Assembly (NCBI GenBank): GCA_977017645.1
Contig: OZ360223.1
Location: 47,554,001 to 47,618,000, forward strand
Reading direction: 5' to 3'
Source of the DNA: Torpedo marmorata
Taxonomy: Eukaryota
Length of the DNA: 64,000 bases
Of the stretch, positions 6,401-63,152 are shown piece by piece (position 1 is the first letter of the stretch; each line of letters starts with the position of its first letter). The position numbers and the translations under genes were made by a program. The notes under the pieces were generated by a model. The model had not been told where the DNA came from, made no database searches, and worked only from the letters and a program-made list of their open reading frames with translations.

Positions 6401-7859
6401 GGAAACAGGATTTTAAACACCGGAACTGTCCTTTCCAAATAGGAATGGACATCCACACTATTTCTTCCAGCACTATATCCTAAAGGGTCTCAGAGCAGAC
6501 AATAAGAATGTCTTTAGAAGCTGTCCATTCCTTGGGCTCTTTTCTCAGAAGAAAAATCCTCCAGGCACTTCTCCAATCCAGACCAATCCCAATCTACTCA
6601 CGCACTCCTAACAGCAAGAAACTTTTGAAGATGGCGACAATTGTTGGTGGTGTCACTTTTAGGATTCCCCTCTCCCTTCTGCCATCATTTCCCTGCTCCT
6701 TCTGTGATCCTGTTATCTCCTCCACTTCTTCCCCCCACCCCACCACTTGCCCCTGAACCAGGGGCCCAGTGGAGGCAAATGTCCATCAGAGCACAGAGGC
6801 TTGTGAGACAGAATTAATTAAATACTACAAACTAAACTTGTGTGAGCTAAATGAGCCAAATTTTGGCTGTTTCAGTCCCCTCCAACAACAATAAGAAGAC
6901 TGCAGAAATACTTCTGGTGAACAATCTGGCTTCTCTTTGGAACCCAGATAACATTAATGCTGTGGTTAGTTTTGCTGATACAAGGTGAATTAAATTGTGA
7001 GGTTCGATGAATTAATGTTCATTTCATAAAAATGAATGGTAAGCTTGATCTGAATTTTGCTAACCTGAAACCAGTTGACAGCATGCAATTACTCCAATGC
7101 TCTTGCATTATTCCAATATATATCCTATAACAAGGTTCCATGTTTAATGTCTGCTTTTGTGTGAAGTTGGGTGATCTTATTGGTGGGAATGATAGCAGTT
7201 GGCCTATTTACCATTTCCCCTTTCCTGTCTAATAATTGCTGGATTGTGAACCTGGAGACTAGTCGGTCAGGAACAGATTCCATTGTGCAGCTTTTAAGTT
7301 GAAATACCACTAGTATACAATTTTGTGAGTTTGTAATGAAAAAAAAAGCACTCTGATATTTAAAAGGAACAACTTCTCAACTGAAATAGGGGGTTAGGAA
7401 ATTGAAATGGTCCTTTGCAGTACTTCTTTTGCAACAACATGCTAGATTTCACAGCCCCTCCCCAGGCTGTTGATTCATTATCTGAATCCTTTTGCTTTTT
7501 TCAGCAAAACCACTTGGGAGCGCATGGTGAACACCGTGCATGGTGAAATCAAACATCTTTCAATTTTGTAAAATCATGTTTCAAATATTGATCATGTTTT
7601 TAAGCATTGGATGGATGTCAATTACTTATCTGCAAAATGAAATAGAAGTGGAATACTTCAGTCATGTTAATTTAAACATTGAGTCCAATTACAATTTATT
7701 AGCGTGCACAATGTAGAATGGAGAACTGTTCCTGTGCACCAGTTTATCCACAAACTACATCTGGAGACACAAAATCCACTGTGTGTTATTTTGTGGGTTT
7801 TGCAAGTTGCAATCAGAATTACATTCCTAAGTGGTATTTGAACTCAGAAGATGCCAAGA

Positions 7860-30900: not shown

Positions 30901-31949
30901 TGATGTCCGCCTTGAAGCGGCTGAAGGCCGCATGGGCCTCTGACGTCAGGGGAAAAGAGGTGAATTTTTTCGAGGGTGCGGGCCTTGTCCGCATAATTGG
31001 GGACCCACTGGGCATAATATGAAAAGAAGCCCAGGTACCTTTTCAGGGCTTTGAGGCTGTGGGGAAGTGCGAGTTCAAACAGGCGGCGCATGCGGTCTGG
31101 ATTTAGGCCAATTACTCCATCCTGTACGACGCAGCCAAGGATAGCCAGGCGTGTTGTGCCAAAGACGCATTTATCCTTATAAGTAAGGTTGAGGAGCTTG
31201 GCGGTCTGAAGGAATTTTTGGAGGTTGGCTTCATGATCCTGTTGGTCATGGCCTCAAATTGTAATATTATCCAGATACGGGAATGTGGCCTGCAGCCCAT
31301 GCTGGTCAACCATGCGGTCCATCTCCCACTGGAAGTCCGAGACCCCATTGGTGACACAAAAGGGAACCCTCAAAAAATTATAGAAGCGGCCGTCTGCCTC
31401 GAAGGCAGTGTATTGGCGGTCCACCGGTAGGATGGGGAGTTGGTGGTATGCCGACTTTAAGTCGATGGTGGAGAACACCCGGTATTGGGCGATTTGGTTC
31501 ACCATGTCGGCTATGCGGGGGAGGGGGTATGCGTCCAGCTGCGTATATCGGTTGATGGTCTGACTTTAATCGATGACCATCCTGTTCTTCTCCCCATTCT
31601 TTACCACCACCACTTGGGCTCTCCAGGGGCTGGTGCTGGCTTCAATGATCCCCTCCTTCAACAGCCGCTGCACCTCCGACCTGATAATGGCCCTGTCCCC
31701 GGCACTGTATCGCCTACTTTTGGTGGCCACGGGTTTGTAGTCGGGGGTAAGGTTAGCGAACAGCAGTGGGGGGGGTGATCCGGAGGGTAGAAAGGCCACA
31801 GGTCATGATCGGTGGGTCGCTGGCTGGACGCAATTGGAGGGGGAACCGGGGAGCTACTGTGGGTGAGTTGCGATGGGCGGTTTACAAACTGCGGATTACA
31901 GACGGTAAGAGGGGGATGGGGCCCATCATACTCCAACGTCACACATTTT

Positions 31950-32032
31950 AAAAAAAATATTTTATTTTCATTTTTAACAAACAATAAAACAAAATACCGG
32001 TACTTCAAAAACAGATATCACATTATATGTGC
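31950..32032 (-). mobile_element. Tiny L1-type 3' tail inserted in the Gypsy protease/RT junction
   Basis: AT-rich insert ending aaaataaaatatttttttt on the minus strand, like the L1 tails at 45790 and 47740; interrupts the CHLK..VTLEY frame; flanked by ttttaa. Confidence 0.65.
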
Positions 32033-32419
32033 TTTTAAGGTGACATTGGAAGTCTAGCCCCAGTAGCACGTTCGCACAGAGCTGTGACATGACAAGTAAT
32101 TTAAAAAGTTTATACTCTGTGCCCAGCACAGTCAGGGTCACTACACAGTAACCGTGGATCTCTGCTGTGTGGGACTTGGAAGCCATGGAGAATTTGTGGC
32201 TTACTGGCATTACCGCAAGGTGGTAACGCTGTACCGTGTCAGGGTGTATAAAACTCCCCGTGCTCCCACTATTGAAGAGGCAGCTCATCTTGTGGCCATC
32301 CACCTCAATGTCCAATATCGATCTGGCCAGTTGATGGGAGCACCCTTGATCCAGTGTGACTGAGGCCAGTACTGAGTCGTTGTCGGGTTCTGTGGAGGTG
32401 ATGCGGTGTTCAGGTGTCT

Positions 32420-32595
32420 GAGATGGCGCCATTCAAGATGGCGGCCCCCATGGTTTGCCCGTGGCGCTGCTGAGTTGGGAAGATGGCGTCGTCCAAGATG
32501 GCGGCCCCCATGTTTCGCACGCGGCGCTGCTGAGTTGCGAAGATTGCTGCGCCCAAGATGGCGGCGACCTTTGCTCACACGCGGCGCTGCTGGGT
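32420..32595. repeat. Three 60-bp tandem repeats in the Gypsy gag-protease linker
   Basis: caagatggcggc...gcggcgctgctg units at 60-nt spacing, encoding SSAA(C/T)..GPPSW on the minus strand. Confidence 0.85.
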
Positions 32596-33768
32596 CTAGA
32601 GGGCAGTTTGGACTTGCAGACTTTTGCGTAGTGTCCCTCCTTCTCGCAGCTAGCGCAGACCACATCTTTCGCCGGGCAGCGTTTCCGGGGGTGCTTATCC
32701 AGCCCACAGAAGTAGCACTTCTGCTGATCGTGGATCATAGTAGCCGTGGTTGAGTCGCTTTCGGAATGTGGTGGTGTTCCACAGGCTTGTGGCCCTCCCG
32801 CATCCCAAGACGGCAGCGCCTTTGGCAACCACGATGCGGCCGCGCTATCGGCAGAGTACGCGTCCATATTTTGGAGGGCCACTTCTAGCGTGCCCGTTAG
32901 GTCCACAGCCCTCTGCAAGTCGAGCTCACCTTGCTCCAACAGTCTCTGCCTTATGTAGTTTGATCGGCAACGTAGGCGTCTCTTATGAGGTCCTCTGTGT
33001 ACGTCGCGGCCGTAACGGCCTTGCAGCTACAGGCCCGTAGGTACTCGTCGCTCGATTCCCCAAGTCGCTGTTTTCGAGTAGCCAGGAGATGTCTGGCATA
33101 GACTTCATTTACCTTCTTCAGGTACTGGCCTCTCAGCGTGTCACAATAACCTTTATTCAGGGGTCTGTGGGAGGAGCCACAGGTACAGCCAGTAAGGGGC
33201 GTGTCCAGATGACCATAAACATATATACAGGTATTTACAGTTGTCGGCAGAATCACAAACGGCAATGAGGAAGTACAGGAGTGAGAGAGATCAGCTCGTT
33301 GAATGGTGTAACAGCAACAACCTTGCGCTCAACGTCAGCAAAACCAAGGAAATGATTGTGGACTTCAGGAGGAAGTCAGGAGAACACAACCCAGTCCTCA
33401 TCGAGGGCTCAGTAGTGGAGAGGGTCAATAACTTCAAATTCCTGGGTGTCAACATCTCCGAGGATCTGTCCTGGAGCCTCCACGTTGATGCAATCACAAA
33501 GAAGGCTCACCAGTGGCTATACTTTGTGAGGTGTTTGAGGAGATTCACCGAAGACTCTCGTAAACTTCTACAGGTGTACCATGGAGAGCATTTTGGCTGA
33601 TTGCATCACTGCCTGGTATGGAGATGCCAACTCTCAGGAAAAGAATAAACTCCAGAGGGTTGTTAACTCGGCCTGTGACATCACAGGCACCAGACTTCAC
33701 TCCATCGAGGACATCTACATGAGGCGGTGTCTTAAAAAACCAGCCTCTGTCCTCAAAGACCCCCACCA

Positions 33769-34765
33769 GTTTGGGGTTAGTTGGGTTAGGCTTGTGGTTA
33801 GGGTTAGGGTTAGGTTGTCAATATGCGGACAGCAGGATGATTATCCCTCTTGTGTTCACTGGCCTCCCCTCTCAGAGATTCTGTGTCACTATAAACTGCC
33901 ACTTTTGGTTGATCCATGCTTTCATTATCCTGTACCTGTTTCTAGCTTTTTTGGTGGGATCAGTGCCATGCTTCTTCTCCGGTACTTATTGTGCCTTTTG
34001 GTATGTCCTGGGTTGAGACCATTCTCTGTCTAGTGGGTGACCTTATATTTATCCCTTAGGATTAGGGTTCGGTGTGGGATTTGGGATGGAGTTAGGTGTG
34101 AGATTAGGGTTAGGTTTATTTGGGGGGTTATGGTTTGGGTTAGGCTTGGGGTAGGGGGGTTGAGGTTGGGGTTATTTGGGGAGTTCAGATTGGGGTTAGT
34201 TGGGGGGTTAGGGTTAGGTTCTGGGTTGTGTTTGGGCTATGGTTTGTGATTGGGGTTAGGTTTAGTTGGGTGCTTCAGGTTAGGGTTAGTTGGGGGGTTC
34301 AGGGTTGGGTTAGTTGGGGATTTAGGCTTAGTGTTTGGGTTGGGGCTGCTGTAGGTGTTGGGGTTGGGGTAAGGCTTGAGTTTGGGGTTAGTTGGGGAGT
34401 TCTGGTTGGGGTTAGTTGGGGGGTTAGGGTTAGGTATTGGGTTGGGGTATGGGTTGGAATTGAGGTTACCACCGAATGTCTCAGATGGTGTCATCTCCTT
34501 GTTCACCCCTGGTGAGGGGGGTCTCCTTGTTCACCCCTGGTGAGGGGGTCTGGAATAACTTCACTCAAGTTAGTGTCGATCACTACAACTTGTCTTCACT
34601 AGTTTCACGGCACTATTTAGATTCTGGTTATTTCTATGTTGCTTCTCGTTTCGCTGTGGCTGGAAGTCGCCACTCCTTTCGCTTCATCAGGGGTCAAAGA
34701 GGTTGAAAAGCCCACGAGTCTGTGTTTTTAAGGGCTATCCATTCTCTCCTCCCTTTGGAGGGGCT
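33769..34765 (-). mobile_element. Unclassified ~1 kb insertion with degenerate (TTAGGG)-like repeats and a hammerhead fold
   Basis: Interrupts Rex1 at cacca|gccat with loss of 5 bp (cccag) and no TSD; degenerate ggttag/ggttgg arrays at 33769-33815 and ~34055-34468. Confidence 0.8.
34645..34718 (-). ncRNA. Type III hammerhead ribozyme-like fold (cleavage-site nucleotide abnormal)
   Basis: Minus strand: CUCGU-ggg(cuuu)ucaa-ccucu-uugaccc-CUGAUGA-a-gc..guggc-gacuucca-gccac..gc-GAAAC-GAG. All three stems pair by eye; the triplet reads GUG or lacks H17. Confidence 0.7.
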
Positions 34766-60795: not shown

Positions 60796-63152
60796 ACCGG
60801 AACTCCTAACGCCACAGCCAAGCCTACCCTAGCCTGGGTCCTGGCCGCCAACTCACCAGAGCTCCAAACGCCACGGCCGCCCACTCCTACCCGCGCCCCG
60901 GATGCCAACATGACGGTACTCCCGATGCCATGGCCGTCCACTTCAACCTGAGCCCCGAGCCCCTACACACCAGAGCTCCTGACGCCTCCACTGCCGACTC
61001 CTGACGCACACTGCTACCTGCAGGAGAAGACGCTGGAGCCTCCCTCGCTGACTGCCACTAGAGTCCTTATCTCGCTACTGGATCCCACTCACTTATCTCC
61101 CTCACTACTCCTTCCCTATCCTCCTACACCTCTCCCTACTCCACCCCCATCTCCCCTTCTCTGCAACCCTCTTCTCCCCAACCCTCAGACCTCACCCCCC
61201 CTCTCTCTCTGGCTACACCCCCTACCCTCCTCTCCCCCTCTCCTACCTCTCCCACCCCCCACCTCCCCCCTCCAACCTCCCCCACCTCCCCACCCCCCAC
61301 CTTTCCCCCCCTCTGACCTCCTCAACCACCCTCCCCCCGCCAACACTCCCAACCCCCCTCCTCCACTCTCCAACCTCCCCCACCTTCCATCTCCACCCTC
61401 GGACCTCCCCAATCCTCCCCCTCCCCCCAACACCCTCCACAACACCGATCCCCACTCTAACCCCTGCTTGGTTTTTACTATCCCCTCTGACCTACCCCTC
61501 TCTGAGACGGAGCGCTCGGTCCTCAGGAGAGGCTTCACCTTCGTCCCCCTCCACCAACACCTCAACAAGTTCCACGCACGCCGCGATGCCGAACACTTCT
61601 TCCGTCGCCTCTGCCTCTGGGCTCACTTCCATGACCATAACTCTCCACCCCCCACCCAAGACCCTTTCTCCCGCTTCAAGCCTTCTTCCTCTCCCTGGAT
61701 ACCTCGTCCTGGCCAGCTGCCCGCTCTGGACCTTTTTATTTCCAACTGCCGCCGAGACATCAACCATCTCAACTTCACCACCCCCCTCTCGTATTCCAAC
61801 CTCACCTCCTCAGAACGCTCTGCCCTCCACTCTCTCCGCAACAATCCCAACCTCACCATCAAACCCGCAGACAAGGGCGGTGCAGTTGTGGTCTGGCGCA
61901 CTGACGTCTACCTTGCCGAGGCCAGTCGACAGCTCTCAGACACCTCCTCCTATCGACCCCTCTCACAGGACCCCACCACTACACATCAAGCCACTGTCTC
62001 CAACACCATCTCCAACCTCACACCCTGTCCCCTGCAAGGATTCCATCCCCTTCCCTCAATTTCTCCGTCTCCGCCGCATCTGTTCCCAAGATGAGGTCTA
62101 CCAGTCTGAAATGTCTGCCTTCTAACACAAACGTGGCTTCCCCTCCACCACCATCAACTCGGCCCTCACCCGCCTCTCCTCCATTTCCCACTCATCTGCT
62201 CTGGCCCCCTCTGCCCCCAGACGCAACAAACATAGAATCCCCCTCATCCTCACCTACCACCCCACCAGCCTCCACATCCAACACATTATCCGCCGGAATT
62301 TCCGGCACCTACTACAGGATCCCACCACCAGACACATTTTTCCTTCTCCTCCCCTCTCGGCCTTCTGCAGGGACCACTCCCACCGCGGTTCCCTCGTGCA
62401 TTCATCCCTCCCCACCCATCGCACCCCCGGCACCTGCCCCTGTGCCCGTAGAAGGTGCAACACTTGCGCCTACACCTCCTCCCTCACCATGGTCCGGGGC
62501 CCCAAACAGGCCTTCCAAGTGAAGCAAAACTTCACTTGTACATCCAGACAACTTATTTACTGCATCCAGTGCTCCCTTTGTGGCATTCTACCGGTCGTAG
62601 ATTGGGAGATCGCTTTGCTGAGCACCTCCTCTCTGTCCGCAACAACAGCGACCTCCCAGTAGCCAACCATTTCAATTCCAAGTCACACTCCCACAGTCAC
62701 ATGTCTGTCCATGGCCTTATGTACTATCCCACCCAGACCACCAGCAAATTGGAGGAACAACACCTTATTTTCCGTCTCGGCACTCTCCAGCCAGATGGCA
62801 TTAACATTGACTTTTCTGCTTTCCACTAAACCTGCTCACCTTTTCCTTCCCCTCCCCCTTCCCTGTCCTTCCAGTTTTTCCACCCACCCAGCCATCCCTC
62901 CTCCCCCTCATTGCTGCTGTCCCCTCCCTCCTTTCTCCACCTATCATCTCCTGCCTTTGCCACCCCCCTTCCACCCCTCACTCTTTTGTTCGGACGCCTG
63001 CCGGCATTTTCTCATACTTTGATGAAGGGCTCAAGCCCGAAATGTCGGTTATGTATTTCTACCTTTGCCACTGTTTGACCTGCTGAGCTTCTCCAGCATT
63101 TATGTTTTTACTTCAAACCACGGTGTCTACAGATTTACGTGATTTACTTTTT
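60796..63152 (+). mobile_element. Penelope-like element with the RT core deleted
   Basis: N-domain LS..ERSVLRRGFTFVP, IKPADKGGAVVVW; jumps at ~62018 to thumb HPVPCKDSIPFPQFLRLRRICS; GIY-YIG-type FTCTS..LIYCIQC..C, RFAEH, PVANHF, LGTLQPDGIN; 8-bp TSD aatgtacc (60788-60795/63153-63160). Confidence 0.93.
63013..63053 (+). ncRNA. Minimal type I hammerhead motif in the Penelope 3' terminus
   Basis: uUGAUGA-a-gggc-ucaa-gccc-GAAA-uguc (cguc in the 16.7 kb copy), with stem I cata/tatg; the usual position for Penelope hammerheads. Confidence 0.75.

Follow-up and report, generated by a model that had tools for sequence, protein, structure and literature searches.

The window analyzed in this work is a stretch of 64,000 nucleotides from Torpedo marmorata (contig OZ360223.1, positions 47,554,001 to 47,618,000 of the forward strand). 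It was found to contain an interstitial insertion of approximately 1 kb that lies antisense within a LINE. About 5 bp of the target were lost at the insertion site, no target-site duplication was found there, and a short microhomology is present at the 5′-end of the inserted element. The insertion is a fragment of a Penelope-like element (PLE) with a unit of 6742 bp. It runs from unit position 6517 to 6742, jumps, continues through the 3′-UTR to a point designated here as site B, and ends in a few telomeric repeats. The features of the insertion are as follows:

33769..34765, minus strand: the whole ~1-kb interstitial insertion (delimited by empty LINE sites in 15 alignments of the window and other loci, and by BLAST to the 6742-bp unit)
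34548..34765, minus strand: the 3′-terminal ~220 bases of the cut-to-cut unit (unit 6517-6742, 90% identical), ending at C17
34696..34705, minus strand: CAAC, the outer 5′-strand of stem I, with the CUCUUU bulge (4/4 pairing in five of five full-context read-through copies)
34691..34695, minus strand: 5′-strand of stem I, GACCC (GUCCC in telomeric copies), with its 3′-partner absent
34684..34690, minus strand: core C3-A9, CUGAUGA, with an extra A at 34683
34653..34682, minus strand: stem II, consisting of 2 bp, a purine-rich internal loop, 5 bp, and an 8-nt loop
34649..34652, minus strand: core G12-A15.1, GAAA
34550..34648, minus strand: long stem III of 99 bases, with a 6-bp base (4/6 paired here, 6/6 in intact copies), 4 bp more, and an inner 7-bp hairpin
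34548..34550, minus strand: position of the cleavage triplet, GAC here; C17 is 34548, the point of the jump to an internal part of the element
33806..34547, minus strand: 3′-UTR segment (to unit ~5848) with C-rich telomere-like repeats and, at its start, a 28-bp duplication (34494-34548)
33801..33831, minus strand: site B, a fixed internal join to (CCCTAA)n and the predicted telomere-priming site (146 joins in the genome)

The initial annotation placed a full-size type III hammerhead with a defective triplet at positions 34645 to 34718, within a vertebrate repeat. The strands that it named are present on the minus strand, with CUGAUGA at 34690-34684 and GAAAC at 34652-34648, and the window copy allows all of its helices to be drawn (stem III, 4/4; GGG/CCC, 3/3; ucaa/uuga, 4/4; stem II, 2/2 and 5/5). 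The core pattern was seen twice in the window against an expectation of 1.27, so that the motif alone is not above chance. The minimum-energy fold of the window motif is not a hammerhead (z = −0.51, equalled by 59 of 200 shuffles), and the scan with Rfam models that the annotation had proposed returned no hammerhead at the gathering score or at E values up to 10. The hammerhead core was nevertheless confirmed through its homologues, and the host is a jawed vertebrate (RAG2, E = 2e-141).

The type III topology did not survive the comparison with these homologues. The annotated stem III needs a G at 34647, which was found in one of the 79 core matches (77 have T and one has A). This stem is 48% paired across 17 aligned variants and 2/4 paired in the five full-context read-through copies. 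An open stem III with an NUH triplet just 5′ of stem I, as in a type III hammerhead, was not found, and there is no valid triplet at the position of the annotated GUG in any copy read; the family triplet is GUC and lies outside the annotated motif, at 34550-34548. The core is kept in homologous copies, but the annotated stem III and triplet belong to the window copy alone and the homologues pair otherwise. The type III assignment was therefore rejected.

A search of the T. marmorata genome (6.2 Gb) returned 92 candidates, of which 40 were scored; many lie in tandem at scaffold ends. Copies of the family were counted as exact matches to a 29-base stretch downstream of the core, and there are 79 of these. 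The family fold was found to be that of a type I hammerhead, in which GAAA is followed by a 6-bp stem III with its 3′-strand approximately 90 bases later, then by GUC, and then by GGGAC, the partner in stem I of the five bases that precede C3. The initial annotation had left the choice between GUC and GUA to the family consensus. The triplet is GUC in 78 of the 79 copies, with GAC in the window copy, but it is located 142 bases after C3 and not at the annotated site. All helices, including the inner hairpin, are paired in each of the five full-context read-through copies. In these copies, stem I consists of 5 + 4 bp around a 6-nt pyrimidine bulge, stem II of 2 + 5 bp around a purine loop, and stem III of 6 + 4 bp closed approximately 100 bases further 3′. 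One of the five, from scaffold C76, has a change in the core. The features of a type I hammerhead (the C3-A9 and G12-A15.1 core segments, an NUH triplet, and three helices) were all found in intact family copies, and the stem II cells are paired at 100% and 94% in 17 variants. The extra nucleotide after the core is typical of Penelope hammerheads (PMC4209133). The intact ribozyme is likely to cleave itself after GUC in vivo.

The window copy differs from the telomeric variant at 17 of the 188 bases compared up to C17, and against the type I fold it is paired 1/5 in stem I and 4/6 in stem III. Only a dead 5′-half of the type I, long-stem-III hammerhead is left in it. The initial annotation had also suggested that this copy may be inactive; it is indeed predicted to be inactive, but the cause is not a missing C17. 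The cause lies in the cut-site junction, at which the 3′-strand of stem I disappeared, and in mutations of stem III and U16.1. The proposed tertiary contact between the stem II loop and stem I is retained in altered form: the purine-rich loop has a plausible pyrimidine partner, but the likely partner is the CUCUUU bulge (34701-34696) and not the annotated cuuu. The annotation had further set this motif apart from the minimal type I motif of Penelope elements. It is indeed larger, but it is a Penelope element's own type I ribozyme and occupies the same position as the minimal ones of the relatives.

In 33 of 78 related loci (metagenome contigs), there is a minimal hammerhead whose loop III has 2-4 nt and which shares the extra A, and for this reason the Torpedo motif is regarded as an enlarged positional homologue of the Penelope minimal hammerhead. 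A long stem III was found in none of the 78 related loci of other organisms, many of which are on contigs not long enough to include the pLTR. In one relative, loop III contains the CUAG palindrome, and CUAG opens and closes the long stem here, which suggests that the long stem III arose by insertion into this palindrome. Such a stem is predicted to let a single ribozyme fold as a monomer without a partner. The Rfam miss may be due to the 99-base stem III, and if so, similar split hammerheads may be overlooked elsewhere. A contig from a sequencing run that may be of RNA spans the ribozyme with GUC unbroken and with six changes outside of the core and stems; it was not counted.

In the telomeric variant, the active fold was calculated to be 7-11 kcal/mol above the minimum at four folding-window sizes, and the pair probabilities of stems I and III are mostly below 0.15; neither calculation includes a pseudoknot term. 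The cost of forcing the hammerhead was determined to be 6.7 kcal/mol in the C123 variant and 26 kcal/mol in the window copy. The competing fold holds the same bulge-to-loop pairing in nested form, and this pairing could be a pseudoknot in the active fold. Covariation supports neither type I nor type III, since one of 33 pairs has changed on both sides, which is below the shuffled mean, in an alignment that mixes 5′-truncated, junction, and decayed copies and includes one misaligned old copy.

Thirty older loci (73-100% identical to an older copy) were also examined. The core is broken in all 30, and stem III is mismatched in 29. Many of these copies are subtelomeric, on many chromosomes (e.g., C47:552k, C41:288k, C44:267k, C45:113.37M, and C54:78.59M), and they mostly point outward, opposite to the young arrays. 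Changes of insert length spare the 4-bp extension of stem III; otherwise, the fold is not supported by the older copies, which resemble a duplicated subtelomeric segment in decay. Several of them are without stem II.

The complete element was defined from scaffold C45, in which the unit is 6742 bp (~6.7 kb) from cut site to cut site. The order within the unit is the cut site, ORF1, a slippery heptamer, ORF2 with RT and GIY-YIG domains, a 2.7-kb 3′-region, and the ribozyme. ORF1 (544-545 aa) is open in six of the eight C45 units and ends in an esterase-like region, and ORF2 (733-743 aa) is open in all eight. ORF1 ends at the heptamer UUUAAAC and ORF2 continues in the −1 frame, from which we infer that a −1 frameshift at this heptamer joins the two. 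With Pfam, ORF2 scores over the cut-off for GIY-YIG and just under it for RVT_1 (E = 4e-6). Its translation has a C-x4-C-x2-C linker between RT and GIY-YIG and a DKG motif; EN+ PLEs are defined by a CX2-5CxxC linker between RT and EN and by the DKG motif (PMC8557442). No match to ORF1 was found in Pfam or the PDB. It has GDSN, GINN, and DxxH motifs, and its Atlas look-alikes (0.93-0.94) are named GDSL/SGNH. A pLTR/tandem structure with the hammerhead is evident from the tandem units and from five solo copies of ~280 bp. By its domains, linker, DKG motif, and pLTR structure, all read from sequence, the host element is an EN+ Penelope-like element of the Neptune-like kind.

Two other assignments were considered. 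An endonuclease-deficient element of the Athena type was rejected because ORF2 has a GIY-YIG domain. A retrozyme is a short, noncoding unit bounded by ribozymes (PMC6765202), and a 6.7-kb unit with two long ORFs does not correspond to this. The family may already be catalogued in Repbase or Dfam. A total of 4485 relatives of ORF2 were found, the best of which mostly have both RT and GIY-YIG. Among 31 related loci examined further, the GDS motif is present in 21 and the same UUUAAAC heptamer in 15. Clusters of CCCTAA follow ORF2 in 8 of 14 related elements, a hint that priming on telomeric repeats may be wider in the clade.

Several variants of the element were noted. In one C45 copy (locus L038, 6260-8203), a duplication of 10 residues spans the YIG motif of the endonuclease and does not disrupt the frame. 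An RT-less derivative, with ORF1 and the ribozyme intact and ORF2 deleted or decayed, has been amplified at several ends (arrays of C2, C42, C44, C1807, and C2127). Minisatellites derived from a 33-bp segment of ORF1 (unit 648-683) and from a 45-bp segment of the 3′-region were found on C76, C123, and C580.

Five chromosome-scale scaffold ends (C2, C42, C44, C45, and C54) hold 46 of the 79 copies in their outermost 200 kb, and the ribozyme strand is directed inward in all 46. The remaining copies are in arrays on four small scaffolds (22 copies) or dispersed (11 copies). The arrays at the five ends are 13-190 kb in length and interleaved with (CCCTAA)n. At the end of C45, pieces of the element and (CCCTAA)n tracts make up the outermost 73 kb. 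The C2 domain extends over ~190 kb and contains 8.7-kb blocks that recur together with the telomeric tracts in them. A single point, site B at unit ~5845, is where the 3′-ends are joined to telomeric repeats; it follows ACCTAAC and lies approximately 900 bases upstream of the cut site. Of the first 100 site-B joins listed among the 146, 75 are at the five ends, and 27 carry a C for the A of the template. We infer that such a substitution would be expected if a primer ending in TTAGGG paired with a terminal mismatch and overwrote the template. The 5′-ends are scattered and are capped by telomeric repeats with short overlaps. Terminal arrays, fixed orientation, and telomere-capped 5′-ends were thus all found, in a genome in which TERT is present.

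Forty-six scaffold ends were surveyed, namely the five chosen for having the element and 41 others. Of these 41, 37 have no telomeric tract, three have a variant repeat, and one (C43 left) has canonical repeats; no element was found in the outer 6 kb of C43 left. The variant repeat, at C75 left, C76 right, and C77 right, is CCCTAA with a few extra bases. The inner edges of the C45 and C54 arrays carry the same 60-bp satellite of variant telomeric repeats.

The ribozyme copies were then distinguished by the sequence that follows the cut site, with 77 copies read together and the window and C11 copies read separately. Sixty-eight of the 79 read on past GUC into GGGAC. The other 11 form four distinct junctions:

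Junction to unit 1182: C45, two copies
Junction to unit 3103: C80
Junction to unit 3884: C54, seven copies
Junction to the 3′-UTR: the window, at 34548

All four junctions are within one base of C17. Three of these (1182, 3103, and 3884) have at most one shared base and no untemplated bases, and at the window junction a short GAC is shared and the triplet is mutated. Splicing was rejected as the cause, as there is no GU donor after the site and no AG before the three clean acceptors. Under a uniform null, the probability that four of four junctions fall within 1 base over a 400-base span was calculated to be ~3e-9, and that for four of ~13 rearrangements (an approximate tally) over the nonrepetitive 4950 bases was ~1e-10. 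The former is the fairer figure because the loci were selected on the presence of the ribozyme, so that junctions close to it are overrepresented.

In the C54 array, a single telomeric join precedes seven cut sites at a spacing of 2568 bp, and no telomeric tract separates the units; five of the six complete units have 0-1 base differences, and the scaffold ends inside the array. In C45, the 1182 junction occurs twice within one tract-bounded insertion. Another C45 insertion has four cut sites between two telomeric tracts, with three identical 6699-bp units that differ by 6 bases over 3770 from another insertion. The C54 and C45 multimers fit one template copied several times. A circle is not thereby proved, since tandem structure by itself is insufficient: repeats with other junctions occur in the same family, including 291-bp units in C64, 600-700-bp units in C44, and the 33-bp ORF1 minisatellite.

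A start at GGGAC beside host or telomeric DNA was found in none of 71 copies. The ribozyme-containing 5′-ends cluster approximately 150 bases upstream, which indicates that uncleaved RNA is also used, and two element-host ends are near the cut but not at it (−12 and +4). The five solo copies, dispersed on C11, C22, C50, C75, and C77, run from unit 6588-6601 through an intact ribozyme to unit 124-136. Uncleaved RNA is therefore also copied, and a second internal start exists. The 5′-ends of the solo copies, at the 5′-edge of the ribozyme, may mark the start of transcription. Their 3′-ends are at GGTAAG, a motif that resembles a splice donor.

We consider it probable (approximately 0.75) that the intact ribozyme cuts the RNA of the element in vivo after GUC and leaves a 3′-end through which the RT copies. 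We are slightly more confident that cleavage is what defines the C17 junctions. The four junctions are likely to be a genomic footprint of cleavage in vivo, and they fit either a circular or a self-jumping template. That the template is a true RNA circle, rather than a linear RNA on which the RT jumps, is given a little less than an even chance.

In the mechanism that we propose, each ribozyme would cut read-through transcripts into unit-length RNAs. The G-strand end of a telomere would then pair with ACCUAAC at site B and prime reverse transcription inside the RNA. On reaching the template's 5′-end, the RT would continue at the cleaved 3′-end, either around a ligated circle or by a jump. Full-length templates would give intact GUC|GGGAC multimers, and templates shortened at the 5′-end would give junctions of GUC to internal sequence, such as that in the window. 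Telomerase would cap the truncated 5′-end, and the window fragment would be part of one such product, inserted into a LINE.

The strongest competing explanation keeps the cleavage but dispenses with the circle. The RT would jump once, and the multimers would form later, either from transcripts that were read through uncut or at the DNA level, where telomeres would undergo unequal exchange or break-induced replication with one another. In its favor, these arrays hold many tandem repeats whose junctions are not at the cut site, several ends share the RT-less derivative, and the C2 blocks are repeated together with their telomeric tracts. This explanation is, however, less comfortable with a C45 junction that recurs inside a single tract-bounded insertion, with a C54 junction repeated seven times after one telomeric join, and with three clean junctions that lack untemplated bases. 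We regard it as possible, though less likely than not.

A second alternative does without RNA cleavage altogether. The structured pLTR would be a preferred start or landing site of the RT, or a hot spot of DNA breakage where the element's own endonuclease nicks, and would coincide with C17. Penelope RT is described as starting inside its own RNA, and the endonuclease as capable of nicking the pLTR of its own element (PMC11167929); the Torpedo element has two further fixed internal ends, at site B and at unit 124-136 of the five solo copies, and the active fold is not the predicted minimum. The cut site was, however, predicted from the hammerhead fold, and four junctions match it to the base. 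Insertion at the DNA level predicts GGGAC after the inserted copy, and telomeric repeats were found instead. This alternative is considered to be improbable. It is more improbable still that the motif is a nonfunctional relic throughout the family, with the junctions placed by chance or by assembly error. The lack of covariation and the broken core of every older copy agree with such a relic, and conservation says little in so young a family, but the four junctions come from four scaffolds and two of them from diverged interstitial copies, with a chance probability of ~3e-9, and the older copies resemble a decayed subtelomeric duplication. Finally, a full-size type III hammerhead confined to 34645-34718 is hardly credible, since it can be drawn in the window copy but is refuted by the homologues.

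Cleavage by the ribozyme followed by copying through the cut end, the explanation preferred here, bears on earlier proposals. The function of the hammerhead in EN+ elements has been called unclear (PMC8557442), and cleavage and circular templates were proposed for PLEs without in vivo evidence (PMC4209133). Four independent junctions at the cut base, one of them present sevenfold in one insertion, constitute a natural and testable record of the cleavage step. The Torpedo element can be cloned and assayed because intact and nearly identical copies exist. No report of genomic junctions at the cut site of a Penelope hammerhead was found in the literature searches, nor was one of EN+ Penelope telomeric arrays in a vertebrate, including the vertebrate Neptune elements. 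Penelope elements are not mentioned in passages of a preprint on lamprey telomeres (10.64898/2025.12.15.694513).

Minimal type I hammerheads were described in the pLTRs of metazoan Penelope-like elements by Cervera and De la Peña in 2014 (PMC4209133). Their loop III is a palindrome of 2-4 nt, whereas the Torpedo stem III has 99 bases and 6 + 4 bp; the Torpedo ribozyme also differs in having an internal loop in stem II and genomic junctions on the cut site. It also resembles the hammerheads of the endonuclease-deficient PLEs of fungi and protists, which are type I with a large helix III and belong to telomere-associated elements, and one such fungal ribozyme was reported to cleave as a monomer in vitro (PMC4209133). 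In contrast to those elements, the Torpedo host is a jawed vertebrate and the element keeps its GIY-YIG domain.

As described for Athena, Coprina, and Terminon (PMC8557442, PMC6431247, PMC3846280), the Torpedo element forms head-to-tail arrays at chromosome ends with 5′-truncated, telomere-capped copies, a reverse-complement telomeric motif at the attached 3′-end, a putative frameshift at ORF1, and a putative GDSL esterase. Those elements are without an endonuclease, whereas the endonuclease motifs are intact here. Their telomeric motif is immediately 3′ of the ribozyme, whereas the Torpedo join is at unit ~5845 and the cut site at 6742. The likeness to the EN+ Neptune PLEs of fish and molluscs lies in the RT, the cysteine linker, the C-terminal GIY-YIG domain, an esterase-like ORF, and a bias toward simple repeats (PMC5408684, PMC8557442, PMC12602865). 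The EN+ PLEs are described in these sources as inserting throughout the genome, whereas the Torpedo element is found in telomeric arrays.

For the Poseidon element PAc of the green anole, reverse transcription was reported to start approximately 90 bases past the cut site, compared with 124-136 in the Torpedo solo copies (Frangieh et al. 2024, PMC11167929). Cleavage was dispensable for PAc in vitro, and no reads ended at the cut site in the experiments described there, whereas the Torpedo genome has four junctions on this site. A further comparison is with a ribozyme outside of retroelements. The discontinuous hammerhead of mammalian Clec2 genes has type III topology, with the insertion in stem I. 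The Torpedo ribozyme resembles it in having a core split by a long insertion, but the Clec2 hammerhead is a regulator in the 3′-UTR of an mRNA (PMC6765202) and that of Torpedo is part of a retroelement.

Telomeric arrays built by retroelements, known from flies, rotifers, and fungi, are now found in a jawed vertebrate that has TERT, and the element responsible has an endonuclease. We suggest tentatively that an EN+ Penelope element may extend chromosome ends beside telomerase, with a monomer-competent hammerhead that would cut and circularize the RNA and with telomere-primed, rolling-circle reverse transcription that would add tens of kilobases per event. If this is correct, the C17 junctions directly record, as genomic fossils, the RNA circles that the ribozyme makes during Penelope retrotransposition, and the telomere-like 3′-motifs of the relatives suggest that a wider clade does likewise.

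Two other retroelement remnants were observed in the window. On the minus strand, positions 31500-32999 hold a broken gag-pol frame of an LTR retrotransposon, with a zinc-knuckle-like stretch and an aspartyl protease, and a 60-bp tandem repeat lies inside this frame at 32421-32592. On the plus strand, positions 61501-62596 hold the remnant ORF of a different Penelope-like family, which is 27-34% identical to ORF2.
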